Assembly: GCA_965219455.1 (NCBI GenBank)
Contig: OZ244744.1
Span: forward strand, 480,001-544,000
Direction of reading: 5' to 3'
Length of the DNA stretch: 64,000 nucleotides
Source of the DNA: Candidatus Latescibacterota bacterium
GTDB lineage: Bacteria; Latescibacterota; UBA2968; GCA-2709665
The notes beneath the pieces were generated by a model. That model saw only the letters and a program-made list of their open reading frames with translations. It was not told where the DNA came from and searched no databases. Both the position numbers and the translations under genes were made by a program. Shown one piece after another: positions 8,501 through 28,514 of the stretch. The stretch's first letter is position 1, and each line of letters starts with the position of its first letter.

Positions 8501-8562
8501 TCGTGTCCCGTCCCCGAAATATGTCACCATTCAGGCAATCTATTTCCGGGACAGAACACTAG
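8501..8562. mobile_element. IS630-like MITE copy 1
   Basis: GTGTCCCGTCCC.GAAATA ... TATTTCCGGGACAGAACACTAG terminal inverted repeats shared with 5 other loci. Confidence 0.7.
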
Positions 8563-8741
8563 CGCTTTTCCTTTTTATGAAGCAAATCGTAATAACCGTT
8601 CTGCTCCAGTCGGCGGATCATATCGCGAATGATCGCGGGGTCGACGCGAAACATCTCCGCAATCTGTGCGGGCGTCCGGCCGTCTTGAACCCATTCAATC
8701 AGGCGATCGCGACTCACGATGTATTCGGGAACAGCCATCAT
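8559..8741 (-). CDS. Small helix-turn-helix protein (60 aa)
   Basis: GRTPAQIAEMFRVDPAIIRDMIRRL resembles an HTH; GGAGG RBS upstream. Confidence 0.6.
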   Translation of the reverse strand: MMAVPEYIVSRDRLIEWVQDGRTPAQIAEMFRVDPAIIRDMIRRLEQNGYYDLLHKKEKR

Positions 8742-11121: not shown

Positions 11122-11226
11122 TCTGCGCGCACGCGAGGCCTTCGCCGAACGGCGCACGCAGCGTGTGTCTTTGTGGCAACACAGCCCATCAATCGCAGTC
11201 TTACAGGAGCTTTTGCGTATTTTCCA

Positions 11227-14200
11227 ATGAAAAGCCGCCGTATCTTACCCTTCGTGGCGCTCTTGCTCACCGCCGCCGCCTTTATCGGCCTGGCGGTGGG
11301 CCCGGAACGCATCAACCCGCTTCTTTCCTCCCTGTTGGGTCTGCAGGCGCCCCGACCCACGCCGTCCATGCCGGTCCCGGGAGCCAGCGAAACATCGGTC
11401 CGCGTCCTGGATACCGTCTCGCATGACGGCGTGCGGGCCCACATGGCCCGCTTTACGGGACACGGCTCACGAATACCGGGATATCCCGGCCACAACGCCG
11501 CCGCAGACTATATCCGCCAAGCTTTCGAACGCGCCGGACTCCAGGACGTCCGCGCCGAGCCCTTCAACGTTACCGCCCCAATCGACAAAGGCGGCAAACT
11601 GACCCTCTTGCGCGACAAAACCACGTTTCCCATTCACGCCATCTGGCCGAACCTGGTCAAGACGTCCACGCTGCCGCGGGGAGGGGTTCGCACGCGCCTG
11701 ATCTACGGGGCGAACGGCGAATTTTCCGACTTCAACGGTCACGCGCTCGACGGTGCGGCCGTCCTGATGGAATTCAACACCCGCAACAGCTGGCTCAACG
11801 CGGCCACCCTCGGGGCGGGACAAATCATTTTCATTGAACCGGACTCCACCTTTTACACCGAAGCCGAACAGAAATTCCTGCAGGTGCCCAACAGCGTTGA
11901 ACGCTTCTGGATCGACAAACAGTCCGGGCAGGCCCTCAAGCGGTTGCTGGCACAGTACAGCGAACTGCAAATCGAACTGACCGCGAGAATGGATTGGGAG
12001 AGCCACACCGCCCACAATATTCTAGGCTTTCTGCCGGGCACGGATCCGGATCTTCGGGACCAGATCGTCGTGATCAACGCGTACTACGACGCCATGTCCG
12101 TTGTACCTGCCCTCGCCCCGGGCGCTGAGATGGCCAGCGGCGCCGTCGCACTGCTAGAACTGGTCAACTACTTCCAGCGATATCCGACGGGGCGCACGGT
12201 GCTTTTTCTGGCCACGTCCGCCCACCACCTGGGCTTTCGCGGGATCTGCGATTTTCTGGGCCGCCACGCCCGTAAGGAACGACACTTTGCCGCCCTGATG
12301 ACCGATCCCATAGACATTCGGCTCTTCATCGGACTGGACCTCTCCAGCCAGACCTCTCAGATCGGAGTCTGGAACAGCACGCGCAACTTCTATTACAATC
12401 GGTTCTTCACGCCGTTCGGCAAGAAATTCGTCAGGATCTCCAAAGCCATCGCGCCCGGCTTCGGGCTCGATCCCGAGCATGCGCTGCTGGACGGCATCAA
12501 TCCCACGGGCGGAATGACCTGGGACATGTATATTCCCGGCGCCAACCTGAAGACCGATGGCGAAGTGGTTCTCGAAGCAGGCACGCTCGCCCTGTCTCTG
12601 GTCACGTTGAACGATGCCCGTTTTCGCGTCGATACGCCGCTGGACCGACCGGATAGGGTCAACCTTGAAAACCTCACCAGACAAATCCGCCTGATCACCG
12701 GCGTTCTCGACATTGCCCTGAACGACCCCTCGCTTATCCCTGATTACCGACTCAACCCGGACGACCGCATGCGCGGCCTTAAGGGATTCGTGCGGACCTA
12801 TCCCAGGCGCAGCATCGTACCCGACCGCCCCAAAGCCGGCGCAATCGCCGCGCTTCGCATGGGCATCGACAAATCGGTCAAGGGCGTACGCCGCATCTAT
12901 TACGACCTCGCAGACGAAAACGGCGAATTCTACATGCCCGGTATCGCCGAAAGGCGCGTGTCCGTCAGCGCGTACTACCAGGATCGGGACACCGGCGAAA
13001 TCACCTACGCCCCCAACTTTGGACAACAGGCGCGCATCTACCGGGGCGACTTCGATATGGACTGGTGGATCTCCAAGCGAAATCTCATTTTATTCCCCTG
13101 CGTCACCACGGACTTTTACGATACCGTCGATCCACGATACCTCACCAAACTCTCGCAGATCAGTGTTTACGGAAGCGGCAACGTCACGCCGCAGGAATAC
13201 GGTTACGCCATCGGATTCGGTCCGACGGAACCCGTAGGCACGCTGTTCACCCAACCCGGCGAGAGGGTCAAAATCGCCATGCGCTCGGGCGACGTCACCG
13301 CAGGTTCAGGCGACATCGGCATCCGGTACCTGCTGCTGAACGCCAACAGCGCGGAGAGTGAGGAAATTGCCCGTGGCCGGGGGTATCCCACCTTCACCCA
13401 CGGTTCGTTTCCACGCACATCCTTTCGGGCCGCCCGGGACATGTGGTTCCTGAACGAAGCCCGCAAACGGGAGATGAAGAAATACGCCATTGAAAACCAG
13501 CGCCTGGACTTCCTCCACAGCCAGGCCAGGCACCACCTCAACATGGCTGAGGAAGCGATGTCCGCAAAACGCTGGGATGGCTTTATGAAACACACGCGGG
13601 CGGCGCTCGGCATCGAGTCCCGCGCCTATCCGGACGTCAAAGACACACAGAACGACGTGGTCCGCGGCATCATTTTCTTTATGGCCCTGGTTATCCCCTG
13701 CGCGTTTTTTGCCGAACGCCTTATCTTCACCGCCGTGGATATCCGGAGACAAATCGTCGGATTTGCGGGCATATTTTTCGTCATCTGGCTCTTTCTTTCA
13801 AGAGTACATCCGGCATTCGAAATCTCCAATCCGTTGGTCGTCCTGCTCGCCTTCATAATTCTGGCGCTTGCGGCATTTGTCATTACGCTGGTCTTCAAGC
13901 GCTTCAACGAGAACATGCGGCGGCTGCGCGTCCCGGAAGTACTTCTGCACGAAACCGACGTCGGCCGAATATCTGCATCGATGGCGGCCTTCCAGCTAGG
14001 TATAGCGAACATGAAACGACGCAAACTGCGCACGGTACTTACGTTTACCACGCTGTTGCTGCTCACCTTCACCGTTCTCTCGTTCACATCCATCAAGTCG
14101 GTCATGGAATATCCCCGGATTCCGAAAGGCACCGAGGGCGCCTATCCGGGCATGCTCATCCGCAGCAAATTCTGGGGCGCGCTCGAAGACGTCGTTTATG

Positions 14201-15762
14201 ATTACGCCTTCACGCAATTCGGGGAATCCGCCATAACCGCCCCTCGGAGCTGGTACTACACGCGGGAAAAGAAGATCATTCCCGTGAAGTCCGAGACCCA
14301 TTCGACCCACGCTCTGGGCGTCCTGGGAATGACGCCCCAGGAGGCTGACGTTACCGGCGTCCACCTCACCCTCAAGACCGGCCGCTGGTTCCGTCCGGGC
14401 GAGACCGCCTGCATCCTGTCCCAAAAGATGGCGGACCTTCTCGGCGTTGACCCGGGACGCCTGGGGGCGTCTCGCATCCGGATTTTCGGCGAATCCCTTC
14501 CGGTTATCGCCCTGATCGACGCCGAGGCATTCAATGGGCTTAAAGACCTGGATGGGGAAACCCTCAGTCCCGCGGATTTCAAGCTCACCGACGAGGAAGC
14601 CATCGCCCAGATGACGACCCAGGAAACACGGGAAAAACAGGGCCTCGAACAACCGGAAGTTGAAATCATGCCCTTTGAACACATCAACCCGGACGATATC
14701 CTGATTGTGCCCTACCAATTCCTGCGCCAGGTAGGAAGCCCGCTGCAATCGGTTGCGCTGCGTTTTGACGCTGGGGCAAACGTGGAGGCCCACGTCAAGG
14801 AACTCCTCACCAGACTCTCGGTGGTGCTCTTTGCAGGATTGCCGGGCGCGGACGGGCGTATCAACGTCTCCGTCTTCAGTTCGCTCGGCGACACGTCGAT
14901 CCGCGGGTTGAGCAACCTCTTTATCCCCATTCTCATTGCATCCCTTATCGTGCTGAACACCATGATGGGATCGGTTTACGAACGTTTCCGTGAAATCGGC
15001 GTCTATTCCGCGGTGGGCCTGGCTCCGGTCCACGTTGCCTTTCTTTTTATTGCCGAAGCGTGCGTCTACGCGGTCCTCGGCACGGTGAGCGGCTACCTGA
15101 TGGGCCAGGGCGTTGCCAAGTTGCTGCTGTGGCAGGACTGGCTCTCCGGCATCTCGCTGAACTACTCCGCCCGCTCCGCGGTTGCCGCGTCTATCCTGGT
15201 CATGGCCGTTGTGATCCTGTCAACCATCTATCCGGCGCGCCAGGCCTCTCGGATGGCCGTGCCGGACGTGTCCCGTCGGTGGAAAATCCCCGAGCCGGAA
15301 GGCGACGACTGGCGGTTCGAATTCCCCTTTACAGTTGGCGGCAATGACGTGTTCGGACTCTGCGTCTTTCTCACGGACTACTTCCAGTCCCACAGCGGCG
15401 AAGCTATTGGGGCATTTTACACGGACGGAGCCGACTTATACAGGATCGGAAACGCGAACGACCCGGAGGGGTACGCCATCCACACAACCCTTTGGCTGGC
15501 TCCCTTCGATCTGGGTGTGAGCCAGGAGCTTCGTTTCGAGGCGGAAGCTACCGGCGAATTCAACATCTACACCCTGACGCTCTCACTCAGGCGCCTCTCC
15601 GGTGAAGTCGCGTCGTGGCGCCGGGTCAACCAGGGGTTCATGAACACCCTGCGCAAACAGTTTCTCATATGGCGTACCGTCGGTCCCGACGACAAAGCGG
15701 CTTACCGCGAAAAAGGCTTGCGGATGCTGACCTCCGGCGAACAGGCGGCGAAACCCGCATAA
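11227..15762 (+). CDS. Large M28-peptidase-like/PA-domain + FtsX-like ABC permease fusion
   Basis: N-terminal TM; GSRIPGYPGH...AADYI, NILGFLPG, AYYD, APGA..ASG (M28 fold); RRKLRTVLT and YERFREIGVYSAVG (FtsX/MacB permease). Start could be 11173. Confidence 0.75.
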   Translation: MKSRRILPFVALLLTAAAFIGLAVGPERINPLLSSLLGLQAPRPTPSMPVPGASETSVRVLDTVSHDGVRAHMARFTGHGSRIPGYPGHNAAADYIRQAFERAGLQDVRAEPFNVTAPIDKGGKLTLLRDKTTFPIHAIWPNLVKTSTLPRGGVRTRLIYGANGEFSDFNGHALDGAAVLMEFNTRNSWLNAATLGAGQIIFIEPDSTFYTEAEQKFLQVPNSVERFWIDKQSGQALKRLLAQYSELQIELTARMDWESHTAHNILGFLPGTDPDLRDQIVVINAYYDAMSVVPALAPGAEMASGAVALLELVNYFQRYPTGRTVLFLATSAHHLGFRGICDFLGRHARKERHFAALMTDPIDIRLFIGLDLSSQTSQIGVWNSTRNFYYNRFFTPFGKKFVRISKAIAPGFGLDPEHALLDGINPTGGMTWDMYIPGANLKTDGEVVLEAGTLALSLVTLNDARFRVDTPLDRPDRVNLENLTRQIRLITGVLDIALNDPSLIPDYRLNPDDRMRGLKGFVRTYPRRSIVPDRPKAGAIAALRMGIDKSVKGVRRIYYDLADENGEFYMPGIAERRVSVSAYYQDRDTGEITYAPNFGQQARIYRGDFDMDWWISKRNLILFPCVTTDFYDTVDPRYLTKLSQISVYGSGNVTPQEYGYAIGFGPTEPVGTLFTQPGERVKIAMRSGDVTAGSGDIGIRYLLLNANSAESEEIARGRGYPTFTHGSFPRTSFRAARDMWFLNEARKREMKKYAIENQRLDFLHSQARHHLNMAEEAMSAKRWDGFMKHTRAALGIESRAYPDVKDTQNDVVRGIIFFMALVIPCAFFAERLIFTAVDIRRQIVGFAGIFFVIWLFLSRVHPAFEISNPLVVLLAFIILALAAFVITLVFKRFNENMRRLRVPEVLLHETDVGRISASMAAFQLGIANMKRRKLRTVLTFTTLLLLTFTVLSFTSIKSVMEYPRIPKGTEGAYPGMLIRSKFWGALEDVVYDYAFTQFGESAITAPRSWYYTREKKIIPVKSETHSTHALGVLGMTPQEADVTGVHLTLKTGRWFRPGETACILSQKMADLLGVDPGRLGASRIRIFGESLPVIALIDAEAFNGLKDLDGETLSPADFKLTDEEAIAQMTTQETREKQGLEQPEVEIMPFEHINPDDILIVPYQFLRQVGSPLQSVALRFDAGANVEAHVKELLTRLSVVLFAGLPGADGRINVSVFSSLGDTSIRGLSNLFIPILIASLIVLNTMMGSVYERFREIGVYSAVGLAPVHVAFLFIAEACVYAVLGTVSGYLMGQGVAKLLLWQDWLSGISLNYSARSAVAASILVMAVVILSTIYPARQASRMAVPDVSRRWKIPEPEGDDWRFEFPFTVGGNDVFGLCVFLTDYFQSHSGEAIGAFYTDGADLYRIGNANDPEGYAIHTTLWLAPFDLGVSQELRFEAEATGEFNIYTLTLSLRRLSGEVASWRRVNQGFMNTLRKQFLIWRTVGPDDKAAYREKGLRMLTSGEQAAKPA

Positions 15763-15824
15763 GTAGAGACCCGCCCCGGATCGGGCAACTTCGGGTTTTC
15801 CGAATGCGCAAACAGGAAATTGTC

Positions 15825-15853
15825 TTTGCAAATCCGGCCGTTGTATGTATAAT
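15825..15853 (+). promoter_or_regulatory. Putative sigma70 promoter
   Basis: TTTGCA-N17-TATAAT upstream of ATG 15890. Confidence 0.5.
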
Positions 15854-15889
15854 TCCGGCCCGTCAACCCTCACATCTCGATAGAGTTCC

Positions 15890-18310
15890 ATGGCGTTATT
15901 AAACCGGTTTCTCAAACGAAAAACCAATCCGTTCCAGGAGATCGAAGAATACCGGGATCTGCTTGAAGTCCCAAAGGAATTCGACGAGGGCTTCAACTCC
16001 AAGACCATTCTCGGCGCGCTCTTCGTCTCCATTATTATGGTTCCGGGGAACATCTACCTGGAACTGATGGTGGGCCAAACGGTTGGCGCCGCGGCACAGT
16101 GGGTGACGATCATACTGTTCCTGGAACTGGCCAAGCGCTCGTTCACCGTGCTGAAGAAACAGGAACTTTATCTTCTCTTTTATGTCACCAGCGCCCTGGT
16201 TGCCCGAGAAACCGGCGCATTCGAGGGCCTGCTCTGGCACCAGTACTACGTTCAGTCACCCGCCGCCAAACAGTTCGGCATCTCGCACCTCATCCCCCGC
16301 TGGTGGGCGCCCCCACCCGACTCCCCCGCCCTGATCGACCGCACCTTCCTGCACGCGGACTGGCTCCTTCCCATCTCCCTGCTCGTCCTGGGAACAATTA
16401 TGGTCCGCATCCAGTGGTTCACCGCCAGTTACGTGCTCTTCCGCATCACCTCGGACTACGAACGCCTGCCCTTTCCGTTCGCCCCCATCAACGCCCAGGC
16501 CGCCATGGCGCTTGCGGAAGAGAGCAGCGGGCAATACACATGGAAGTGGCGCGTCTTCAGTATCGGCGCCGTCATCGGTGTGGTATGGGGGGCCGTTTAC
16601 GTGGCCGTGCCCGCCATCACCGGCGCGTTTATGGAAAACCCGCTTCAACTCATCCCCATTCCATGGGTGGATTTTACCCAGTACACGGGTTATTTTCTAG
16701 AGGCCACGCCGATGGGATTCACGCTCCACCTGGCGCCCATTTTCGCCGGCCTTCTGGCCCCCTTCTGGGCCGTCATGGGTGCATTCATCGGCGTCGTCAT
16801 CCATACCGCGGCCAGCCCCATTCTTTACCGACACGGTTACATGCCCCACTGGTTCATGGGCATGGATACCATCATGACGCACTTTGTCACCGGCATCGAC
16901 TTCTGGATGAGCTTCGGGATCGGCATCACTCTAGCCATCGCAATTATCGGGTTCTACCAGGTCTGGACCGGGGTTCGCACCGCCCGGCGGGAAAAGAGCG
17001 AAAAGGGGAGCTGGACGCCACCACCCGGAAGGGGCGACTTCCGCATATGGATCTGCATCGTGCTTTTCTGCCTTTCCAGCATGTACACCATCATCCTGGC
17101 CAAGATTCTCTTTCCCGACCTGGTTGGAAAGGTTCTGCTCACCTTCTTTTTCATCTTCGCTTTTGTCTACACCCCGCTGATCTCCTTTGTCAACGCCCGG
17201 CTCGACGGCCTGGTCGGACAAAACGTCAATATCCCGTATATCAAGGAAGCCACCATCTTTCTGAGCGGGTTCAGGGGCATCGAAATCTGGTTTGTGCCGT
17301 TCCCGCTGGCAAACTGGGGGGCGGAAGCCGAACGTTTCCGGCAGATCGAACTCACGGGCACGAGATTTACGGGGATCCTGAAAGCCGAGCTTTTCATGGT
17401 TCCCCTCATTTTTGTTACCAGCTTCATGTACTGGTCCTACATCTGGAAGCTGGCACCCATACCCTCGGCCTCCTACCCGTACGTACAGCTGATGTGGCCG
17501 CTCAGGGCGCTGCAGAGCAGCGTCTGGTTCACTGGCACCATGCAGGGTGAGGTGGAAACCGATGTGTCCTCCGGAACGGTGTCCTTCCAGCCCAGCAATC
17601 TGCCAGACGGCAACTGGTGGTACTGGCGCGCACGCGCCTCGGCCGACGTCGACATCGAAGATCACGAACAACGCGCCTACGGACCGTGGTCCCGGGTCGG
17701 GTACTTTTATACGAACTTCGAGGATTCGGAACGCCCGTTAACGCCTTCGTTCCCCCTGGACCGTGCAGAACCGGACATTTCCGATGCCCTTCAACAAGGG
17801 CTGCCTTCGGCGCCCGTGTTGAGAAGTCCTTCAGACGAAAGCCACGCGGACAACCCCAACCCCAACATGATCGTTCTCGAAGCCCGGGACCCGCAGGGGC
17901 GGGAAATGGTATACCAGTTCGAAGTAGACCAGGTACCCTCCTTCGACGGTTCTTTTCTTCAGAGTTCCGACGACGTGCCGATCCTGTTCGAGGCCCTCAA
18001 GAAAGAGGTTATCTTCATTGGACTCGCCGTCGGCCTGTTCTCGTTCGTGGTTCTGTCCGTCTTCGGCCTGCCCATACTGCTCATTTTCGGGTACATGCGG
18101 AGCCTGACCAGCATTCCGCACCTCCTCATCACTGAAATCATCGGCGCGCTCCTTGCGCGGTTCTATTTCTGGAAACGCTTCGGCAAACAGCAATGGCGCC
18201 TCTATGCGGCGGTACTTTACGTCGGGTTTTCGGTGGGGATGTCCCTGGTGGGCATGGCCTCCGTCTCCATTGCCATGATCCAGAAAGCGGTCTCGGTACT
18301 GTTGTTCTGA
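15890..18310 (+). CDS. OPT-superfamily-like membrane protein with inserted FN3/Ig-like domain
   Basis: Multi-TM protein with ERLPFP and APIPSASYP motifs; hydrophilic insert containing WYWRARA...GPWS and PSAPVLRSP. Confidence 0.7.
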   Translation: MALLNRFLKRKTNPFQEIEEYRDLLEVPKEFDEGFNSKTILGALFVSIIMVPGNIYLELMVGQTVGAAAQWVTIILFLELAKRSFTVLKKQELYLLFYVTSALVARETGAFEGLLWHQYYVQSPAAKQFGISHLIPRWWAPPPDSPALIDRTFLHADWLLPISLLVLGTIMVRIQWFTASYVLFRITSDYERLPFPFAPINAQAAMALAEESSGQYTWKWRVFSIGAVIGVVWGAVYVAVPAITGAFMENPLQLIPIPWVDFTQYTGYFLEATPMGFTLHLAPIFAGLLAPFWAVMGAFIGVVIHTAASPILYRHGYMPHWFMGMDTIMTHFVTGIDFWMSFGIGITLAIAIIGFYQVWTGVRTARREKSEKGSWTPPPGRGDFRIWICIVLFCLSSMYTIILAKILFPDLVGKVLLTFFFIFAFVYTPLISFVNARLDGLVGQNVNIPYIKEATIFLSGFRGIEIWFVPFPLANWGAEAERFRQIELTGTRFTGILKAELFMVPLIFVTSFMYWSYIWKLAPIPSASYPYVQLMWPLRALQSSVWFTGTMQGEVETDVSSGTVSFQPSNLPDGNWWYWRARASADVDIEDHEQRAYGPWSRVGYFYTNFEDSERPLTPSFPLDRAEPDISDALQQGLPSAPVLRSPSDESHADNPNPNMIVLEARDPQGREMVYQFEVDQVPSFDGSFLQSSDDVPILFEALKKEVIFIGLAVGLFSFVVLSVFGLPILLIFGYMRSLTSIPHLLITEIIGALLARFYFWKRFGKQQWRLYAAVLYVGFSVGMSLVGMASVSIAMIQKAVSVLLF

Positions 18311-18460
18311 GCCCCGCCCGGAGAGCGCGCAGCGCATCGTTTCCTCGCAGGACGGCACGCTGTCGGACTCCTTCCAGACTTCCCTCCTCCCCAGGCCGAT
18401 TTCCTGAAGAAACGGATCCCGCCACGCGGAACCAATGCCGCCATTGTGGGTCGATAACCC

Positions 18461-18489
18461 TTGACTTCGGTTCGGACGGTAACTATTTT
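18461..18489 (+). promoter_or_regulatory. Putative sigma70 promoter of BMC operon
   Basis: TTGACT-N17-TATTTT. Confidence 0.5.
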
Positions 18490-18523
18490 GTCCGGTCGAG
18501 TGATTCGCTCCGGACCGTTCGAC

Positions 18524-18585
18524 CTAATGTCCCGTCCCAGAAATATGTCACCATCCGGCAATCTATTTCCGGGACAGAACACTAA
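18524..18585. mobile_element. IS630-like MITE copy 2 (in 5' leader of BMC operon)
   Basis: CTAATGTCCCGTCCCAGAAATATGTCACCAT...GGCAATCTATTTCCGGGACAGAACACTAA. Confidence 0.7.
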
Positions 18586-18603
18586 CGCCACCGGGACGGA
18601 CGT

Positions 18604-19161
18604 ATGTCAGTCGCAATCGGCATGATCGAAGTCGAAGGCGTCGCCGGCATTATTCTCGCGTCGGATGCCGCCTGTAAAACCGCCGGCGTGGATCTCCTGG
18701 GCTGGGAGTCCATCGGCGGATTCACCACCGTTTTCTTCGGTGGTTCCGTCAGCAAGGTCGCAACGGCGCTAAAGAGCGGCGAAGAGGCGGCCAGAGAGGT
18801 CGTGAGCCACGTGGTGGTGGCGCCGATGACACGACCCGAACCCATCTGTCGGGATTACGTCTCGAATGCCCGGGCTCCGGAGCGGCGAACACCGTCCGGC
18901 GCATTGGGTCTGATCGAAACCAGGGGATATGGCGCTCACATCACCGCCAACGACCACATGGTAAAAGCCGCCGACGTCCAGGTCTATAACGTGCTTACCG
19001 TACACAACCGGGTCGTCTGCTCCCTTATACTGGGCGACGTGGCCTCCGTGAGCGAAGCCCTGCCTGTCGGCCGCGCGTGCGTTGAAGCCGGGGAAAACTT
19101 TCTCTGCGACGCGCTGATCCCTCAACCCCTGCCCGAAGTCCTCCGGGCATTCGGCCCCTGA
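18604..19161 (+). CDS. BMC shell protein with two BMC domains
   Basis: AIGMIEVEG...DAACKTAGV...G.V..V..A and ALGLIETRG...DHMVKAADV...GDVASV. Confidence 0.88.
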   Translation: MSVAIGMIEVEGVAGIILASDAACKTAGVDLLGWESIGGFTTVFFGGSVSKVATALKSGEEAAREVVSHVVVAPMTRPEPICRDYVSNARAPERRTPSGALGLIETRGYGAHITANDHMVKAADVQVYNVLTVHNRVVCSLILGDVASVSEALPVGRACVEAGENFLCDALIPQPLPEVLRAFGP

Positions 19162-19170
19162 GCGGCAGCC

Positions 19171-20331
19171 GTGAACGCACGAAATCGTGCCCTTGGTATT
19201 CTCGAAACCCGTGGCATGACCGCGCTCATCGCGGCCCTGGACGCCATGCTGAAAACCGTGGACGTCAGGGTTCTCGGACGACATGGCGTGGGTTCCGGTT
19301 GGGTAACCGTTGTCGTTGAGGGCGCCGTTTCGGATGTCGAAGCCGCCGTCCACATAGGGAGAACCGAGGCCGAAAACCACGGCGACCTCATCACCGCCGA
19401 CGTCATCCCGGGTCCCGACGCACGCGCCCTGGAACCCATGCCTCACATGACGGGCGCAACCTCGGCAAGGCCGGTCGGACCCCTGGCCTTGGGTATCCTC
19501 GAAACCCGCGGCATGGTACCCCTCATCCGCGGCGCGGACGCCATGATCAAAAGCGCGCCCGTCCACGTTGCCGGCTGGACATCCATCGGCGGCGCACTGG
19601 TTCATCTCCTGGTAAGGGGCGATATAGCGTCGGTCCGGATCGCCGTTCAGGCCGGCAAAGCGTGTGCGGGTGAGGTCGGAGAGGTCTACGCCGCGCTGGA
19701 CATTCCCAGTCCTGAAGCGGGCATCGCGACACTGCTTCCCCATACATCGATAACGAACGCGCCGGAGACCGACGTCGGCGCGCTGGGCGTTCTTGAAACA
19801 ACGGGTTATGCGTGTGCGGTCGGCGGTTGCGACGCGATGGTCAAAGCGGCCGGCGTTGATCTGGTGCGCCTCGTCATTGCCAGCGGAGGACGCGTCGACG
19901 CGCTGGTGAAAGGCGCCCTCGACGCGGTCCAGGCGGCCGTTCAGGCCGGTGTCGATGGCGCGCAGGAGGCCGGGGAATTGAATGCATCCTGCGTCGTTTC
20001 CCGTCCATCTTCCGAAATCCTGGCCTGTTTTGGCGGCAGCAACGCAGGGAGACCCGCGAGCCGGAATCAGGCGATGGGCCTGATCGAAACGCGTAGCACC
20101 GTCGCCCTGGTCAAAGCCGTGGATCAGATGTTGAAATCAGCAGACGTGGAATACGAGGGACGTTACAAGGTGGGTTACTTTCTCACTGCAAGCGTTGTCC
20201 GGGGAGACGTTGGTGCGGTGCGCACGGCGCTGGGAGTCGGCGCCGCGGAAGCCGAGAAATATGGTGAACTGGTGTCCGCCCTTCTCATCCCCCACCCCTT
20301 TCGTGCCCTGGAAGAACGCTTGATTCACTGA
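19171..20331 (+). CDS. BMC shell protein with four tandem BMC domains
   Basis: Four repeats: ALGILETRG..DAMLK, ALGILETRG..DAMIK, ALGVLETTG..DAMVK, AMGLIETRS..DQMLK, each followed by G[AD][VIL]..V..A. Confidence 0.9.
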   Translation: MNARNRALGILETRGMTALIAALDAMLKTVDVRVLGRHGVGSGWVTVVVEGAVSDVEAAVHIGRTEAENHGDLITADVIPGPDARALEPMPHMTGATSARPVGPLALGILETRGMVPLIRGADAMIKSAPVHVAGWTSIGGALVHLLVRGDIASVRIAVQAGKACAGEVGEVYAALDIPSPEAGIATLLPHTSITNAPETDVGALGVLETTGYACAVGGCDAMVKAAGVDLVRLVIASGGRVDALVKGALDAVQAAVQAGVDGAQEAGELNASCVVSRPSSEILACFGGSNAGRPASRNQAMGLIETRSTVALVKAVDQMLKSADVEYEGRYKVGYFLTASVVRGDVGAVRTALGVGAAEAEKYGELVSALLIPHPFRALEERLIH

Positions 20332-20370
20332 TCGGCCGCCGAACGCCCTGTCCCTCAACCGAGGAAATCG

Positions 20371-21540
20371 ATGATCCGTATTGACGATCCGGTCGTTACC
20401 GAACAGCTACTCAAGGACAGACTTGGCACGCAGCGTGAGGTCGAAATCTGCCCGCGGGCAAAGCTGACTCCGCTGGCGCTGGACTACCTGGCGGCCAACC
20501 GCGTGGAAGTGACGAGGAAAGACGCCGCGCCCGCCGGCCCGCGGACTTCGGCGCCGTCGCGCCATAACAACTCTGGCGCAAAAAAGGAATTCAAAGGCAT
20601 CTTCTGTCCCAACATCGTCATCTTCGACCGAAACGATCGCATCAACTACGCGGAAATGGAGCGCTACGTCAACTGGCTCATCGAGGCCGGCATCCACGGG
20701 TTATATCCCAATGGCAGCACGGGCGAATTCGTGCGCCTGTCCAGCAACGAGCGCAAGGAAGTGGTGCGCGTTGTCACAAACGTCAACCAGGGGCGGGTGC
20801 CGGTTCTGGCCGGCGCGAGTGAAGCAAACCTCCGCGACGTGCTCAAAATGAGCGAATACTACGCCGGCGTTGACGTCGACGCCATCTCTCTCGTACCCCC
20901 CTATTATTACGAGATATCCGACACGAGTCTCTTCGAATACTTCGCCGAAATCGCCAGACAGACGCCTCTCGACCTTCTCCTCTACAATATCCCCCAGTTC
21001 ACGCAGGAACTCACGCTGGACATCATGGAACGGTTGCTGGCATTCGAGCGCATTATGGGTACCAAAGACTCCAGCCGGGACATGCCGCGCCTGATCAACA
21101 CCATGCACCGGCTGCGCGCACAACGTCCCGACTACGTGGTCCTGGTCGGCTGCGAAGAAATCCTCTGTCCCTCCATCATGATGGGCGCCAGCGGCGGCAC
21201 GATCGCGACATCCGGCATCGTTCCCGAAGTCATCGTGGACATCTACGAAAAAACCCTGGCCGGCGATATCGAAAACGCGCGCGACATGCAATACCGCATT
21301 CTGGAACTCATCAACCTTATGCTGCTGGGAGTCAACTTCCCGGAAGGCTTTAAAACGGGCGTGGCCGTGCGGGGTTTCGACGTGGGTCCGCCACGCCAGG
21401 CCATGAGTAGCCAGGAGAAGGAATATCTACTCAAGCTTGAAGCGCAGATCAGCTGTATCCTCAAAGATATGGGTTATGCGATCAAAGGTCCGAGAGCCTG
21501 TCCCGTAACCAACCTGCCGTCAATTGTCGAACGGACCTGA
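20371..21540 (+). CDS. DHDPS/NAL-family class I aldolase with N-terminal BMC-associated extension
   Basis: GSTGE, LYNIP and KDSS (Schiff-base Lys); N-terminal ~50 aa with LTPLALDYL motif and a Pro/Ala linker. Confidence 0.85.
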   Translation: MIRIDDPVVTEQLLKDRLGTQREVEICPRAKLTPLALDYLAANRVEVTRKDAAPAGPRTSAPSRHNNSGAKKEFKGIFCPNIVIFDRNDRINYAEMERYVNWLIEAGIHGLYPNGSTGEFVRLSSNERKEVVRVVTNVNQGRVPVLAGASEANLRDVLKMSEYYAGVDVDAISLVPPYYYEISDTSLFEYFAEIARQTPLDLLLYNIPQFTQELTLDIMERLLAFERIMGTKDSSRDMPRLINTMHRLRAQRPDYVVLVGCEEILCPSIMMGASGGTIATSGIVPEVIVDIYEKTLAGDIENARDMQYRILELINLMLLGVNFPEGFKTGVAVRGFDVGPPRQAMSSQEKEYLLKLEAQISCILKDMGYAIKGPRACPVTNLPSIVERT

Positions 21541-21600
21541 TGAGCGACCCGCGCGCGACGGAATCGATTCTGTCGTTCGGTTTTGTTAAGGAGAATGGCA

Positions 21601-22545
21601 ATGGCCGAAAACACACCTGGACGCAACCTGGTCAATCCTTTCAACCTGAATTCCGACGACGGATATGTCTGGCTGAAAGGCAACCTCCACTCCCACACGA
21701 CGAATTCCGACGGCAAAGCGTCGCCCCAGGAACGCCTGGACGGGTATGTCAGACAGGGATACGACTTTCTCTGCCTTTCGGACCACCGTAAAATCACCCG
21801 GATCGATTCCGTGGAATGTCCGGACGACTTTGTCCTCATTCAGGGCGCCGAACTGCATCCGGACAACCCGTTCGGCGGGCAGAAGCACCATTTCCTCTGT
21901 CTGAACATCCACGAAGACATCGACTCGGAGAACATGCCGCCTCAGCACGTTATCGACGCCGTCCGGGACCAGGGCGGCTGCACGTGGCTGGCCCACCCCT
22001 ACTGGAGTTCGGTCAATATCCTGAGAGACACCCTGCCCCTCACGGGAATGGCCGGCGTGGAAGTATTCAACACAACGTGCCGATGCGCGGGACGGGGTGA
22101 ATCCGGCGTGCATTGGGACGATTGGATGGACCTGGAAAACAGGCTGTATCCCGCCCTGGCCAACGACGATTCCCACGCCCTCGAATCCCAAAATCGCGAC
22201 ACCTACCGGGGCTGGACGATGGCGCGCGTGAAAAACCGCTCCCCGCAGGCCATTGTCGACGCACTGGCAAAGGGCACGAGCTATTCGAGCACGGGCGTAA
22301 AAATTCACAACATCAGCCTGCACAAGACCACGGGGGAGCCCGCGGCGGTGAATGCCACCGTAGAATGCTCCGAATCCCGGTGTATCCTTGCCATTTGCGA
22401 TACCTTCGGAACCGAATACAGAGGTTCCGGGAAACCCTTTACCAGGGCAACCCTCACCCTTCGCCCCGGCGCGCGCTGGGTCCGTTTCGAAGTCATCGGA
22501 ACGGACGGCACGAAAGCCTGGTCCAATCCATTCGACCTCACTTGA
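21601..22545 (+). CDS. PHP-domain metallohydrolase (CehA/McbA-like)
   Basis: WLKGNLHSHT..SDG, SDH, AHP, VEVFN, DDSH, WSNP. Confidence 0.8.
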   Translation: MAENTPGRNLVNPFNLNSDDGYVWLKGNLHSHTTNSDGKASPQERLDGYVRQGYDFLCLSDHRKITRIDSVECPDDFVLIQGAELHPDNPFGGQKHHFLCLNIHEDIDSENMPPQHVIDAVRDQGGCTWLAHPYWSSVNILRDTLPLTGMAGVEVFNTTCRCAGRGESGVHWDDWMDLENRLYPALANDDSHALESQNRDTYRGWTMARVKNRSPQAIVDALAKGTSYSSTGVKIHNISLHKTTGEPAAVNATVECSESRCILAICDTFGTEYRGSGKPFTRATLTLRPGARWVRFEVIGTDGTKAWSNPFDLT

Positions 22546-22558
22546 TGCGGAAGCCGCA

Positions 22559-23296
22559 ATGGGACTCGCCCTGACACCCGAGCAGGCGGCAGCGTATCGC
22601 GCAAACGGCTTCGTCCAGGTACCCGATCTGCTCACCCCGCGTGAGATCGGCACCTTCCTGGAAGAGGAGGCAGAAACGAAGCCTCCGGAAATCCTGGAAC
22701 TCGGCCTGCGCAGGCACACCGCGGACCCGCAGTGGCGTTATCTGGCGTCACACCCACGCGTCGCAGGTTTCGCGGCCCAACTGCTGGGCGGGCCGCCGAT
22801 GATCGTTCAGACCATGTACATGGCAAAGGCGCCGAAAGGCGGCGCCGGCATCGCGCTGCACCAGGACGCTCACTATATCCGGAACGAGCCCGGCACCCTC
22901 ATGGCCTGCTGGATTGCATTGAGCGATACCGACAGAAACAACGGCGGTCTTTGCGTCGCCGCTGGCAGCCACCTGGCCCCGCTCCGGAAAACCCGCCCCC
23001 CCAAAAACAGCAGTGAACACGCCTCGTGGGTGAAAGACTATGCCATGCGCGGGCCCGACGGACACGAATGGTCCGAAACCATGCACTCGCACGAAGTCGC
23101 CGGCGTGCATCCCGATGAACTCACCTTTCTTACGGTTCCGCGAGGGTCGGGCGTCTTCTTTACCGGCGGAACCATCCACGGTTCTTACGCAAACCGATCC
23201 CTGGGCAGGCCCCGGCTGGCGTTCGCCACACACTACGTAAGAGAGGGCACATGGGTATTTCGCCGCGACATCCAGGATCTTACTCCGGTCGAATAA
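22559..23296 (+). CDS. Phytanoyl-CoA dioxygenase (PhyH) family Fe(II)/2OG dioxygenase
   Basis: LHQD, CWIAL.D...NGGL..GSH, IHGS..N.S..PR. Confidence 0.85.
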   Translation: MGLALTPEQAAAYRANGFVQVPDLLTPREIGTFLEEEAETKPPEILELGLRRHTADPQWRYLASHPRVAGFAAQLLGGPPMIVQTMYMAKAPKGGAGIALHQDAHYIRNEPGTLMACWIALSDTDRNNGGLCVAAGSHLAPLRKTRPPKNSSEHASWVKDYAMRGPDGHEWSETMHSHEVAGVHPDELTFLTVPRGSGVFFTGGTIHGSYANRSLGRPRLAFATHYVREGTWVFRRDIQDLTPVE

Positions 23297-23408
23297 CCGG
23301 CTTTTCCGAAGCGTACAACCGGAGAGGCGGAGTCGAGCGGTTCTCAACCTCGTTATTCAAGTTGTTTTCGTCCAACCCTTTCGATGTTTCACATTTGGGA
23401 ACCCCATC

Positions 23409-24377
23409 ATGAAACGCGTTGCAAAGCCGGAAGGCGAATACAATATCGTAATCGAAGACGTTCCAATACCTGAAATTGAGCCCACCCAGGTCCTGATCCG
23501 GGCAGAATGCAGCCTGATCAGCCGGGGTTCCGAAATCTGGCGGCGTTACATCCGTCCCGAGTCCATCGACCATCAGAGCATGGGCTACTCATTCGTGGGG
23601 GACGTCGTCGAGGTCGGTGCGCGCGTTGACGGCTTCTCTATGGGAGACCGTGTGGCCGCGATTGCGCCACACGCGGAGTACGTTGCCGTCGAAATCGTGG
23701 GTTCCCGCCACAAAGATCCTGTAGTGCACCTTCCGGACGCGGTCTCCTCGGAAGCCGCCACCTTCTGGCCGCTGAGCACCAGTTCGGTCCTGTGGATGTG
23801 GGAAATCGATGCACACAAAGAAGACACGGTCGTCATTCTCGGACAGGGTCTGGTGGGCTCCCTCTGCATGCAGGCGCTCAAGGCAGACGTGAACCCCAGG
23901 GTTATCGCGGTTGACGCGCTTCCCCTCAGGTGCGAACTGGCCGAACGCCTCGGAGCAGACCACGTGGTGGACGCATCCCGGGACGATCCGGTGAGGGCGG
24001 TCCGACGGTTGACGGAGGGCGCCGGCGCAGCCGTCGTGGTTGAGGCGGTGGGCGGTCGCGCGGGCGCGGGCGCCTTCGTACAGGCTCAGGATATGGTGAA
24101 AAGCCGGGGGCTTATCCAGGTCATCGGCTTATATGAGGACGAGCCGCTTCCCCTCGACTCCGGGAAGATCCAGGGCCGGCGCATCGTCGGCGGTTATTCG
24201 GACGGCGGCAAACGCTCCCTGGGGTCGGACCGCGCGCTGCAGCTGCTTGCCCAGAAAAAGATCCGGTCCGAAGAGATGATTACCCACCGCTTTCCCTTCC
24301 AGGAAGCTTCTGAAGCTTTTGACTTGCTTTACACGCGGCTGGGCGAGACGATGGGCGTGGTGCTGGTGTGGAAGTAA
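23409..24377 (+). CDS. MDR-superfamily (zinc-binding dehydrogenase-like) oxidoreductase
   Basis: SLISRGSE, GYS.VG.V, GQGLVG Rossmann motif, ITHRF. Confidence 0.82.
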   Translation: MKRVAKPEGEYNIVIEDVPIPEIEPTQVLIRAECSLISRGSEIWRRYIRPESIDHQSMGYSFVGDVVEVGARVDGFSMGDRVAAIAPHAEYVAVEIVGSRHKDPVVHLPDAVSSEAATFWPLSTSSVLWMWEIDAHKEDTVVILGQGLVGSLCMQALKADVNPRVIAVDALPLRCELAERLGADHVVDASRDDPVRAVRRLTEGAGAAVVVEAVGGRAGAGAFVQAQDMVKSRGLIQVIGLYEDEPLPLDSGKIQGRRIVGGYSDGGKRSLGSDRALQLLAQKKIRSEEMITHRFPFQEASEAFDLLYTRLGETMGVVLVWK

Positions 24378-24458
24378 GGGGTACGGGCGTCGGTATCGGG
24401 GTTTGCCGGATTCATGCCCCGAAACGCCGACGCCCGAATCACGTTTAACGGAGGATTC

Positions 24459-25355
24459 GTGAAGAACGATTTTTACAAGGGTCACGGTCTTGGCAACGAC
24501 TACATCGTGATGGATCCGGCCCAACTCGACTTTGAACTCACTCCGGAAAATATCCGATATATCTGCGACCGCAACCGGGGCATCGGCGGTGACGGCATCC
24601 TCACCCTGGAACCCGCAACAGGCGCCGACTACGGCCTGCGCATATTCAACCCCGATGGCAGCGAAGCTGAAAAGTCGGGCAACGGTCTTCGCATTTTCGC
24701 GCGGTTTCTCCACGCCACCCGGCGGACGCGTAAGCGTGACTTTACCGTAGACACCCTGGGCGGACTTGTGGAGATCCAGGTTCACATCGACCGTTACGGA
24801 GACGCCAGCCTGGCAACCGTAGAGATGGGACAGGCCGACTTCACTCCGGATGCCCTCCCGTGCACGCTGGCGGGCGATGAACTCATCGATTGTCCGATAA
24901 CCGCCGCCGGCCACGACCTGAAATTCACCGGCGTTAGCGTGGGAAACCCCCACTGTGTTATCTTCAAACCCTCGAACCAGGCCTGGACGCGCGAGGAACT
25001 GCTCAGCCTGGGTCCCTCTCTGGAAAATCACGAACTCTTTCCCAATCGCATCAACGTGCAACTGGCCGTACCCACGGGTCCGAAGGAAATCTTCATCCTC
25101 ATCTGGGAGCGAGGCGCGGGAGAAACACAGGCATCGGGATCGTCGTCCTGCGCGGCGGCATGCGCCGCCGTTCGCCACGGGCTGGTGGAATCGCCGGTAA
25201 CCGTCAACGCTCCGGGCGGCGCCCTCTACGTCGCCGTTGACTCCGAATTCCGCCTTACCATGAAGGGTCCCGTCGCGGAGGTCGGGCAGGGCGCCCTGAG
25301 CCCGGCGTTCGTCAGGGAACTTCAGGACGTAAACCGGGTCTCTTCCGGCGGGTGA
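24459..25355 (+). CDS. dapF: Diaminopimelate epimerase-like protein, Ser/Ser active-site variant
   Basis: KGHGLGNDY, GIGGDG, NPDGSEAEKSGNG, VGNPH, WERGAGETQASGSS; GTG after GGAGG. Confidence 0.8.
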   Translation: MKNDFYKGHGLGNDYIVMDPAQLDFELTPENIRYICDRNRGIGGDGILTLEPATGADYGLRIFNPDGSEAEKSGNGLRIFARFLHATRRTRKRDFTVDTLGGLVEIQVHIDRYGDASLATVEMGQADFTPDALPCTLAGDELIDCPITAAGHDLKFTGVSVGNPHCVIFKPSNQAWTREELLSLGPSLENHELFPNRINVQLAVPTGPKEIFILIWERGAGETQASGSSSCAAACAAVRHGLVESPVTVNAPGGALYVAVDSEFRLTMKGPVAEVGQGALSPAFVRELQDVNRVSSGG

Positions 25356-25366
25356 ACGGATGTCTA

Positions 25367-26479
25367 TTACGCCACACGGTACTTCGCCACGGTGTTCTCG
25401 TCGATCGTCACGCCCAGCCCCGGGCCTTCGGGAACCGTGACGTACCCGTCGGCAAGTTCGAAGCGCTGGTGGGTCAGTTCGTGGCGCAGTGGAGATTCCG
25501 ACATACAATACTCGAACATCTCCCCGCCCGGTATCGCGGCGAGCGCATGAAGCGACGCCGCGATCGTTATCCCGCTCTTGAAGCTGTGATTCACCACCCC
25601 TGTATGGTGGCGGTGCGCCATCCTTCCCACCTCCACCATGGTCGAAATGCCGCACCGCCCCGGATCAGGCTGCACCCAATCCAGTCCGCCATCCGACACC
25701 AGGCGCTCGAAAGCGTCGAGACGCGCTTCCGCTTCCCCCGCGGCAATGGGCAGGGGGCTCTCCGCCGTCAGCCGGGAGTAACCACGCAGGTCGCCCGGTT
25801 GCAGAGGCTCCTCGAGCCAGAACGGGCGGAACTCCGCGAACTGGCGCGCCCGTTTCAGCGCCGTCTTCCAGTCCCATACCTGCCCCGCGTCGATCAGCAA
25901 ATCCACCCCGTCTCCCACGCCGCGCCGCGCTTCCCTTACCAGGGCGATATCGGTCTCTTCGTCCCCTCCCATCGGCCCCCAGCCGAACTTGACCGCCGTA
26001 AAACCCTCCCCCGCGAACCTCCGCCCCAGTTCTCCGGTCTGAGCCGGCGTATCTCCGAACAGAATCGAACAATACGCACGGAAACGCTTCCGGAAGGGTC
26101 CCCCCAGAAGCCGGTATACCGGCCGGTCACATGCTTTGCCCGCAATATCCCATAGCGCAATATTGACGCCCGCCATGGCGTGCAGCGCCACGCCCCCTCC
26201 GCCGTAGTAGTGTGCCGCGTCCAACATACGATGCGTACAGACTTCCACCGCGAGCGGATCTTCGTTGCGAAGCGCGTTAGCCAGACCGTTGCAGATCTGG
26301 TGTGACAGCGGCGCGTCCACAATTGACTTGACGGCCATCGGACAGGAATCCACCTCGCCCCAACCCGTGAGGCCGGCGTCGGTTTCGACCCTGATCAGAC
26401 AGGTATCCTGCGTACCGTCGCAGGTATCAGTGACATGGGGCAGCCGCAACACCATTGCGGTTACACGGGTTATTTTCAT
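25367..26479 (-). CDS. Mandelate racemase/muconate lactonizing enzyme family (enolase superfamily)
   Basis: ALWDIAGK, D-A-G, WLEEP, AAGE, QPD, GPGLG. Confidence 0.88.
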   Translation of the reverse strand: MKITRVTAMVLRLPHVTDTCDGTQDTCLIRVETDAGLTGWGEVDSCPMAVKSIVDAPLSHQICNGLANALRNEDPLAVEVCTHRMLDAAHYYGGGGVALHAMAGVNIALWDIAGKACDRPVYRLLGGPFRKRFRAYCSILFGDTPAQTGELGRRFAGEGFTAVKFGWGPMGGDEETDIALVREARRGVGDGVDLLIDAGQVWDWKTALKRARQFAEFRPFWLEEPLQPGDLRGYSRLTAESPLPIAAGEAEARLDAFERLVSDGGLDWVQPDPGRCGISTMVEVGRMAHRHHTGVVNHSFKSGITIAASLHALAAIPGGEMFEYCMSESPLRHELTHQRFELADGYVTVPEGPGLGVTIDENTVAKYRVA

Positions 26480-26621
26480 TTCAAACCTCCGATCATCGAA
26501 TCAGTCGGCGCCACGGCATCGAGACCGGGCGCAATCGCGCGCGAACAGTGGTTCCCGGTTCCGCATGATACCCACCCGCGTCTGGTCTGTCAATCCTCAC
26601 GCGCGGGATCGGCCGCCGGCT

Positions 26622-26673
26622 TTAGTGTCCGGTCCCGTAAATAGATTGCCTGATTTCCGGGACAGAACACCAG
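26622..26673. mobile_element. IS630-like MITE copy 3 (short, inverted)
   Basis: TTAGTGTCCGGTCCCGTAAATAGATTGCCTGATTTCCGGGACAGAACACCAG. Confidence 0.65.
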
Positions 26674-26748
26674 AAACGGGTTGCACCCGTGTGCCATTCA
26701 CCGTAGATTATCCGCCATCTGCTCTGGCCCTAAACCGGGGATTCCGCT

Positions 26749-27510
26749 ATGCCCGCCGTCGAGCACCTGCGCGAATACTATGAAGCCAATGGCGTGCTGC
26801 CTCGAATCGACGTCTTCTCCGAAAACGAGATCGACGCATTCAGGTCGCAGTTCGACGAGCTCGAATCCAGAGAAGGCAGAGAAATCTGCCAGATCGGCCT
26901 CCAGTCCCGCCATTTCGAAGAAGAATTCATCTGGAGGCTCTCCACCGATGCCCGTATTCTCGACGTGATGGAACAGGCCATGGGTGGAGAAATCCTGCTT
27001 CTGGCCACGCATTTTTTTTGCAAGTACCCCGACAGAACGGAGAAACATTTCGTGGCGTGGCACCAGGATGTCACTTACTGGGGTCTGGAGCCGCCGCTGG
27101 CGCATACGGCCTGGATCGCCATAGACGACAGCGACGCGGAGAACGGCTGTATGCGGGTTATACCGGGTTCCCACAAGAGCGGTATCGTTACCCACGGCAC
27201 TTCGGAAAGGAAGGGGAATCTACTGAGCATCAACCAGGAAATCCCGGACGAATTCGTGGACACCAGCCGTGCGATAGACCTGGAACTCAGCGCAGGACAG
27301 ATGTCAGTCCATCACGGCCAGCTATTCCACGCCAGCATGCCCAATACCTCGAACAGGCGGCGTTGCGGCCTTACCGTCCGCTTTATCCCGCCGGAAGCCA
27401 GACAGGTCGAAGCCAACTCGATCGGCCGGGACTGGCGGCCCATCCTGCTCAGGGGCGAGAACCGGTACACGCACCACCCCGGAATCCCAATGCCCTTTCC
27501 ACTACAGTAA
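26749..27510 (+). CDS. PhyH family dioxygenase
   Basis: WHQD, AWIAIDD...NGCM..PGSH, HASMPN.S..RR. Confidence 0.88.
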   Translation: MPAVEHLREYYEANGVLPRIDVFSENEIDAFRSQFDELESREGREICQIGLQSRHFEEEFIWRLSTDARILDVMEQAMGGEILLLATHFFCKYPDRTEKHFVAWHQDVTYWGLEPPLAHTAWIAIDDSDAENGCMRVIPGSHKSGIVTHGTSERKGNLLSINQEIPDEFVDTSRAIDLELSAGQMSVHHGQLFHASMPNTSNRRRCGLTVRFIPPEARQVEANSIGRDWRPILLRGENRYTHHPGIPMPFPLQ

Positions 27511-27521
27511 AGGAAATTCCA

Positions 27522-28391: not shown

Positions 28392-28514
28392 ACCCTTCGG
28401 GTCCCGTTCGGCGCGCGGTCGGGTGAATCGCTCGCGCCGGGCTCGATAACGGACGCACACGCCCGACAATCCGTGAACAACGGGTCGTCGGATTTTCCGT
28501 TGAGGTCAACCCAA

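Follow-up and report, generated by a model that had tools for sequence, protein, structure and literature searches.

A two-domain and a four-domain BMC protein that probably share one asymmetric shell tile in Latescibacterota

Five hexagonal building blocks are recognized in the 2021 catalogue of bacterial microcompartment (BMC) shells, and all of them are homo-oligomers of one- or two-domain chains (PMC8217296). In the same source, BMC-T is defined as a two-domain fusion that forms three-fold symmetric homotrimers (Sutter 2021, PMC8217296). In this work we describe two adjacent genes, A (P0001) and B (P0002), that encode a two-domain and a four-domain BMC protein. They are located in a stretch of 64,000 nucleotides (nt), hereafter the window, of a Candidatus Latescibacterota bacterium (assembly GCA_965219455.1, contig OZ244744.1, positions 480,001 to 544,000), and their products probably associate as an obligate 1:1 heterodimer to form a pseudohexameric facet tile that lacks internal symmetry and has a single pore unlike any other.

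Among the described tiles, those of the BMC-T^s type (PduT, CcmO, and Haliangium BMC-T1) share with A and B the non-permuted PF00936 domains, the linkers of about 15 amino acids (aa) and the six domains per hexagonal tile. However, BMC-T^s is a two-domain homotrimer, whereas A and B have two and four domains, respectively, and are predicted to combine 1:1 without symmetry. In fact, exactly two non-permuted PF00936 domains per chain, as in BMC-T^s, are found in A but not in B, which has four, and none of the six domains is permuted in the manner of BMC-T^dp or BMC-T^sp. The hetero-hexamers of CcmK3 and CcmK4 in the beta-carboxysome (PMC6788708) are also hexagonal tiles made from more than one gene product, but these proteins are single-domain paralogues, whereas in A/B covalent linkage and two dedicated genes set both the composition and the order. 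The best structural match to B is 6NER, a tandem BMC-H fusion from a synthetic Haliangium shell, yet this is an engineered two-domain protein that forms a homotrimer. Finally, together with the aldolase gene that follows them, A and B resemble the 'EUT module' satellites (EutA/B/C plus an EutL-type BMC-T^sp), in which a main BMC is extended by a dedicated tile and by the enzyme whose substrate this tile presumably lets in (Sutter 2021); in our case the enzyme belongs to another family, the tile would have two chains and targeting would depend on a folded N-terminal domain (NTD) and not on a short helix.

Chains that break the two-domain rule also occur outside this lineage, as three-domain BMC proteins of 283-308 aa in public metagenomes. 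The seven that were tested (P0139, P0140, P0141, P0142, P0158, P0171, and P0174; 286-308 aa) all have three PF00936 stretches, and P0140 comes from an Elusimicrobiota metagenome-assembled genome (MAG). Like B, they depart from the one- or two-domain rule but, unlike in A/B, a ring would be completed by two copies or by a 3+3 pair, without a four-domain chain. P0141 and P0144 are colinear paralogues with 39% identity and both are recorded on contigs of the same two lengths (520,993 and 5,151), which hints at a pair of this 3+3 kind; a metagenome scan with P0141 returned nine loci, all with ordinary one- and two-domain genes, and recovered neither the P0141 nor the P0144 locus. Three- and four-domain BMC chains are not mentioned in the parts covered of the 2021 catalogue (main text and preprint) and of the 2014 taxonomy, whose supplementary tables may list them, and phrase searches of the literature, with supplementary tables outside their scope, found no description of such chains. 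The original prediction, made from the DNA letters alone, named no described tile of this kind. It also spoke of a new system, and A/B would rather be a new kind of tile inside a known organelle.

Domain content and co-occurrence of genes A and B

Gene A (18604..19161, + strand) has an ATG start and encodes a protein of 185 aa with two PF00936 matches, A1 (18613-18822) and A2 (18901-19128). Its stop is separated by 9 nt from the start of gene B (19171..20331, also on the + strand), which encodes 386 aa with four matches, B1 (19189-19416), B2 (19486-19713), B3 (19780-20007), and B4 (20071-20298), all six domains lying on the + strand. B begins with GTG, and the position of this start is fixed because the open frame has 389 codons, that is, only three open codons 5' of the GTG. 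The Pfam profile PF00936 recognized two stretches in A with 114.7 bits and four stretches in B with 246.6 bits (Pfam cut-off 24.5), in agreement with the two and four domains that had been predicted. In a profile search of the whole genome the six domains spanned positions 1-73/75 of PF00936 in the normal order and, therefore, none of them is circularly permuted. Searches of A and B against NCBIfam gave nothing above cut-off, with the CcmO, EutM, CsoS1, and PduT models matching below threshold, and this places both proteins outside any named family.

B was searched for in 168 genomes of the phylum of the window (E ≤ 1e-40) and was present in 83, all of them in a single class: 15 of 21 genomes of family f1 plus the window's own genome, 2 of 31 in f2, and 65 of 76 in f4, with none outside the class. 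The frame is full-length and free of stops in 78 genomes, down to 47% identity, and the other five copies are interrupted by contig ends. Furthermore, contigs from two further DNA studies cover B (X13, 18559-21700; X5, 18664-20506), and a protein collection lists for B more than 120 clusters at 90% identity, of 366-424 aa, the few named ones coming from MAGs labelled Gemmatimonadota or Latescibacterota. The worry that the fusion was an assembly artefact could thus be excluded, given the intact frame in 78 genomes and the independent DNA contigs that span it. RNA-library contigs from two runs of one study cross the A/B junction (18575-19883 and 18452-19611) and another crosses the B/aldolase junction (20178-20493), DNA carry-over being possible in these libraries. 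In a representative library of 1.84 billion proteins, only one full-length four-domain representative (P0107) was present besides fragments, which confines the four-domain form to this lineage. B and A were found in none of the five genomes of genera g2, g3, and g5, relatives which keep two BMC-H genes, suggesting that the A/B tile is an accessory and not a core component of the shell.

A and B are never apart wherever the assembly permits a judgement. The window and the 77 other full-length loci, 78 in total, were scanned with a BMC-domain hidden Markov model built from the six domains of the window, and a two-domain gene was present directly upstream of B and on the same strand in every one of them. 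After trimming the starts to the nearest start codon, 76 of 77 loci had a distance of between -13 and +12 nt from the A stop to the B start, the outlier being L087 (175 nt), where the start was probably mis-picked. The two genes overlap in 53 of these 77 loci (37 at -8, 12 at -1, 3 at -4, and 1 at -13), and such adjacent and overlapping genes fit a coupled, equimolar synthesis of both proteins. When A was used to search the phylum the result was two-peaked, with 85 matches in 84 of the 168 genomes at E ≤ 1.4e-49 and 46-100% identity, and all the remaining matches at E ≥ 1.5e-26 and 41% identity or less. These 84 genomes are the 83 that have B plus G095, where A is interrupted by a contig end. 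The co-occurrence on which a 2+4 tile depends thus holds in 78 of 78 loci and in 83 of 84 genomes.

The six domains also behave as six separate lineages. Identity is 58-69% inside a class and 23-39% between the six classes, with A1 and A2 being only 23-36% identical to the other classes, and in a tree built with 129 domains of 16 loci, A1, A2, B1, B2, B3, and B4 each formed one branch, with values of 95-100 in the Shimodaira-Hasegawa-like approximate likelihood ratio test (SH-aLRT). A D-x-x-x-K motif, which we take to be the tile-edge lysine motif of the PduA and CcmK structures, is kept in at least 90% of the sequences in all six classes; the invariant residues in the alignments are D21/K25 and D117/K121 in A, and D24/K28, D123/K127, D221/K225, and D318/K322 in B. 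An edge motif on all six domains is expected if each of them supplies one outer edge of the hexagon. The pore loops, presumably located where each domain aligns with the pore loop of BMC-H, have the consensus S-I-G-G in A1, T-V-H-n-R-V-V-C in A2, G-S-G-W in B1, G-G-A-L-c-H in B2, S-G-G-R in B3, and K-V-G-Y-f in B4. All of them differ and each is conserved inside its class, as anticipated by the proposal of six different pore residues.

As to where the six domains came from, the best-match identities are compatible with the doubling of a three-domain unit (T1-T2-H twice), and so is the best tree of the A and B domains alone, which grouped A2 with B3 (78.8), B1 with B4 (77.4), and A1 with B2 (0.9). 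An origin from three two-domain units was not rejected by the approximately unbiased test (p-AU 0.65), and the likelihood was in fact higher for its constrained tree. Another conserved shell pair, consisting of a two-domain protein of 185-187 aa followed by a BMC-H of 87-88 aa, lies upstream of A-B in 57 of the 78 loci (L042-L101; e.g., L055:5121-5681 and the next gene). Its domains are 83-86% identical inside a class, and the A/B domains match them better than any others, if only weakly, with the pattern T1-T2-H occurring twice.

Ring models and alternative assemblies

The median lengths of the three linkers in B are 16, 15, and 15 aa (range 11-20), and the median for the single linker in 140 two-domain proteins of the same loci is 15 aa (12-20). 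Because the linkers of B are as short as those of BMC-T, its four domains are expected to occupy neighbouring places of one ring. An AlphaFold2 model of B had a mean predicted local distance difference test score (pLDDT) of 91.1 and a predicted TM-score (pTM) of 0.89. In a Foldseek search this model matched best, among PDB entries, the chains of 6NER (target-normalized TM 0.89-0.92 over about 180-193 columns, 37-39% identity), on which neighbouring B domains superpose with a TM of 0.91, and 6NER was also the best PDB match by sequence. Over residues 204-384, B3-B4 can be aligned with PduT. Of the 61 PDB sequence matches to B, 60 were listed, and no chain among these would fit more than two BMC domains; the sole longer match, 3gv2 (342 aa), is fused to a viral capsid protein.

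A complex of A and B was modelled with alignments of 52 rows each and compared with three control proteins, which were unrelated, non-BMC proteins. The score was 0.78 (0.78, 0.77, and 0.79 in separate runs) against 0.00 for the best of the three controls, and it passed a mark reached by 58 of 80 solved complexes and by 2 of 110 mismatched pairs. The runs shared at least 96% of their contacts and the pLDDT of the partners was at least 89. In the model, domain 1 of B (residues 8-92) is in contact with domain 2 of A (107-138), and domain 4 of B (308-365) with domain 1 of A (7-87), so that A sits between the first and last domains of B in a single closed ring, as expected from the original prediction for a 1:1 heterodimer. 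The model thus suggests that A and B together close one ring in the order A1-A2-B1-B2-B3-B4.

Several points weigh against this interpretation. The high score may reflect the likeness to known rings, because BMC hexamers and trimers have been abundantly solved, and the controls were unrelated proteins and not BMC-H or other BMC proteins. The model would accordingly indicate that the ring layout is possible and not that A is preferred over other BMC proteins. An analysis of mutual information with average product correction (MI-APC) in 78 A/B pairs, with an effective number of sequences (Neff) of 26 and a power too low to count in either direction, placed none of its top 100 pairs in the predicted interface blocks (1.4 expected) and 4 of its top 500 (7.2 expected). 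Moreover, in length and layout A resembles an ordinary BMC-T, able to trimerize alone.

This last point leads to the arrangement in which A and B build separate tiles, A as an ordinary BMC-T homotrimer and three B chains as twelve domains in two rings, either stacked or as covalently linked neighbours. The arithmetic of 3 x 4 = 12 domains permits it, A is like PduT and other BMC-T proteins in its size and two-domain layout, and A matches CcmO- and PduT-type models below their cut-offs. However, B has linkers just as short as the one that joins two domains within a ring in two-domain proteins, its domains are non-permuted whereas stacked double trimers have been described only for the permuted BMC-T^dp (Sutter 2021, PMC8217296), and linked rings would need extra domain interfaces, for example B2 beside B1 and B4 beside B3. 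It also leaves unexplained that B never occurs without A. We therefore regard separate tiles as unlikely, and the double ring of three four-domain chains, which the original prediction offered as its alternative, is disfavoured by the 16, 15, and 15-aa linkers and by domains that are not of the permuted stacking kind. A slightly smaller probability is given to B being a fixed four-sixths of a ring whose last two places are variable, filled by A or by two BMC-H proteins from the main microcompartment locus of the genome, in mixed tiles like the CcmK hetero-hexamers. Hetero-hexamers of BMC-H paralogues are in fact on record in the case of CcmK3/CcmK4 (PMC6788708), and the controls of the complex model contained no BMC-H, but a variable filler does not agree well with two genes that are strictly adjacent and often overlap, nor with A1 and A2 being conserved lineages of their own that are 23-36% identical to the other classes.

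It is improbable that the pair is not a shell component at all and serves some other purpose, such as a scaffold, a nanotube or a partner that binds the aldolase in the cytosol. The pair is indeed far from the BMC-P genes in this genome, but in family f4 the same pair is found inside a full BMC locus (L055) and the edge motifs are kept on all six domains. That the four-domain frame arose by annotation or assembly joining two two-domain genes has practically no probability left, considering the stop-free frame in 78 genomes down to 47% identity, the contigs of independent runs that span it and the more than 120 clusters of 366-424 aa. Taken together, the domain counts, the strict co-occurrence and the ring-closing complex model support the 2+4=6 asymmetric pseudo-hexamer of the original prediction, and we consider that A and B are likely to form this obligate 1:1 tile.

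Aldolase, main microcompartment locus and neighbouring sequence

The gene that follows B, 39 nt downstream in the window, encodes a DHDPS/NAL-family class I aldolase-type enzyme of 389 aa (P0123; 20371..21540, + strand), which is a probable cargo. PF00701 scores 197.9 bits on it and covers residues 74-361, and the motifs GSTGE, YNIP, and GTKDSS are kept in 45 orthologues; the Schiff-base lysine and the Tyr/Thr motifs are, we assume, the signature of the DHDPS/NAL family, so that both the PF00701 fold and the motifs of this family are present. None of the NCBIfam equivalogs reaches its cut-off on this protein. The aldolase follows B on the same strand at -3 to 143 nt in 72 of 77 loci, and its relatives in 72 of the 77 loci align from residue 1 with 60-94% identity. 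At the level of genomes, 77 of the 83 with B have an orthologue (those without it are G094, G096, G099, G101, G106, and G107), and the aldolase was found without B in two, G049, where the gene opens a contig, and G127, which is 58% complete. Orthologues with one in-frame TGA each are found in two genomes of genus g4 (G043:C9:14905-16068 and G044:C389:3072-4229), and one with an in-frame TAG in G068:C74:8314-9528; the same stop in the two g4 genomes could reflect recoding, a shared pseudogene or a split gene. In G031-G036 (families f13 and f14), which also carry BMC genes, there are DHDPS homologues about 50% identical to the window aldolase that have no NTD, with alignments beginning at residues 43-71.

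The NTD of the aldolase, of about 54 aa (20371..20532, + strand), is a candidate shell-docking domain. In an AlphaFold2 model, residues 1-50 form a small beta-alpha-beta-alpha-beta domain (pLDDT 87-90) followed by a disordered linker at residues 53-70 (pLDDT < 50) and by the barrel from about residue 74, a layout of domain, floppy linker and enzyme that is resembled by the N-terminal extension on the BMC-associated DERA (PMC11585597). The NTD is shared with the N-terminus of a small Cys-rich protein (P0124) with 39% identity (E 2e-9). This protein of about 150 aa has, after the NTD, six conserved cysteines (C-x-C, C-x2-C, C-x2-C) and a C-terminal helix-like tail, and its gene lies just before A in family f4 (at L055:5962-6411, + strand, it ends 3 nt before A); this protein is possibly a partner of the tile that binds a metal or an Fe-S centre. 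A jackhmmer search located an NTD-bearing gene in 78 of 78 loci: the aldolase carries the domain in 73 loci and the small protein in 60, with both in 55 and the small protein alone in five, these five being the loci that have no aldolase. In the window's own genome the small Cys-rich protein is absent and the NTD is found only on the aldolase. A Pfam search of the NTD gave no match at E ≤ 10; weak matches to TIGR02536 (E 0.19 for the window domain and 2e-4 for P0124) and an Atlas lead of 0.78 to an EutQ-fragment cluster are leads only.

The genome is a single contig of 5.84 Mb, and its only other set of shell genes, with two BMC-H and three BMC-P, is at C1:3.738-3.746 Mb, more than 2.5 Mb from the A-B pair. 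As in other BMC systems, the genome thus encodes BMC-P (PF03319), BMC-H and cargo enzymes besides A and B. This main locus also holds acetate kinase, a class II aldolase (PF00596), aldehyde dehydrogenase and PTAC, and the combination of PF00596, aldehyde dehydrogenase, PTAC, BMC-H and a BMC-P triplet identifies it, by gene content, as a predicted metabolosome similar to that of Planctomycetes and Verrucomicrobia (PVM-like). The A-B pair is a satellite of this main PVM-like locus. A fucose/rhamnose organelle has been proposed for Latescibacteria (PMC4454575). In family f4 the A-B module is embedded in a complete BMC locus, and the order in L055 is aldehyde dehydrogenase, PTAC, BMC-T, BMC-H, the small protein, A, B, aldolase, an oxidase dependent on flavin adenine dinucleotide (FAD) and a second DHDPS-like gene.

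From these data a working model can be proposed. A and B would be synthesized together, would close one asymmetric ring A1-A2-B1-B2-B3-B4 and would be built into the facets of the PVM-like metabolosome encoded at the distant main locus. A-B-aldolase would arrive as an add-on module, with the aldolase being carried into the shell by its NTD and flexible linker. The pore would be lined by small residues from A1, B1, and B2, by His-Asn-Arg from A2, Arg from B3, and Tyr-Phe from B4, and might let through the anionic keto-acid substrate of the aldolase or its pyruvate product, while the aldehyde formed inside would be handled by the aldehyde dehydrogenase of the organelle. A more tentative possibility, to which we would not give even odds, is that the symmetry-free tile is a single-site portal, in which the NTD docks one enzyme or metal centre over the pore and the substrate is handed through. 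It is suggested by the presence of an NTD-bearing gene in all the loci, including the five without aldolase, and by the fact that the NTD is nowhere but on the aldolase in this genome.

Two types of compound are candidate substrates for the aldolase. One is a 2-keto-3-deoxy sugar acid. The aldolase of the non-phosphorylating fucose route is a member of the DHDPS family. In that route L-2-keto-3-deoxyfuconate is converted by an aldolase to pyruvate and L-lactaldehyde (PMC11199699). If this were the type of substrate used, the enzyme would supply the aldehyde that the PVM-type class II aldolase also supplies. The other candidate is a 4-hydroxy-2-oxo acid derived from a hydroxy-amino acid, as hinted by the FAD oxidase that adjoins in f4 and by the PhyH dioxygenase, DAP-epimerase-family and MR/MLE genes located downstream in the genus of the window. 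These downstream genes, at 22388-29639 (+ strand), encode two PhyH-type dioxygenases, a Zn-dependent dehydrogenase, a DAP-epimerase-family protein, an NAD epimerase/dehydratase and an MR/MLE enolase-superfamily enzyme; the set is conserved in the window's genus only (12-15 of 77 loci) and could be a pathway that makes the aldolase substrate.

A terminator-like hairpin with a 9-pair stem and a T-rich tail (21555..21576, + strand), 15 nt past the aldolase stop, is a possible end of a three-gene A-B-aldolase operon, bearing in mind that the number of terminator-like sites in the region is not above that of shuffled sequences (7 vs 4.7). The stretch of about 0.85 kb that separates the aldolase from the first PhyH gene (21541-22400) contains only Arg/Pro-rich open reading frames (ORFs) on both strands, with no family matches, and the ORFs 18193-18585, 21540-21791, and 21816-22100 were treated as non-genes since they are Arg/Pro-rich strings without family matches.

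On the other side of the pair, 20 nt upstream of A, there is a hairpin repeat of about 55 nt (18528-18585; dG -17.4 kcal/mol, z -3.3). Further copies are found in the window at 8504-8565 and at G000:C1:3742002-3742052 and 3747417-3747475, two copies lying in intergenic gaps of the main microcompartment locus, and there are at least 52 matches in the genome (40 of 179 candidates scored). Its depth in public runs is 20-40x that of the flanks and many contigs break there. An Rfam search of the upstream repeat gave only sub-threshold microRNA-like matches. It could be an element of the repetitive extragenic palindrome or miniature inverted-repeat transposable element type (REP/MITE-like), or a shared regulatory hairpin that joins the satellite and main loci. 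Farther upstream (9115-18310, + strand) are genes for a DUF6785/DUF6784 protein of 668 aa, a protein of 1529 aa with an FtsX-like permease domain and a protein of 806 aa, the last one having no match in Pfam; the 1529-aa and 806-aa genes are kept beside the pair only in 14 of 77 loci, in genera g1 and g4.

Implications for shell architecture

If the proposed assembly is correct, A/B would be a sixth building block of BMC shells and the first whose six positions all differ and follow a fixed order. Considered together with the three-domain proteins, it would mean that chains can share the six domains of a ring in more than one way (6x1, 3x2, 2x3, and 4+2). Such a tile would have one pore of unique chemistry and a single copy of every surface, which would make questions about pore selectivity and cargo placement testable, and it would be a natural scaffold for shell engineering in which a single site per tile could be changed. 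Finally, the module points to a DHDPS-family aldolase as an aldehyde-producing cargo in widespread uncultured bacteria that are labelled Latescibacterota or Gemmatimonadota.

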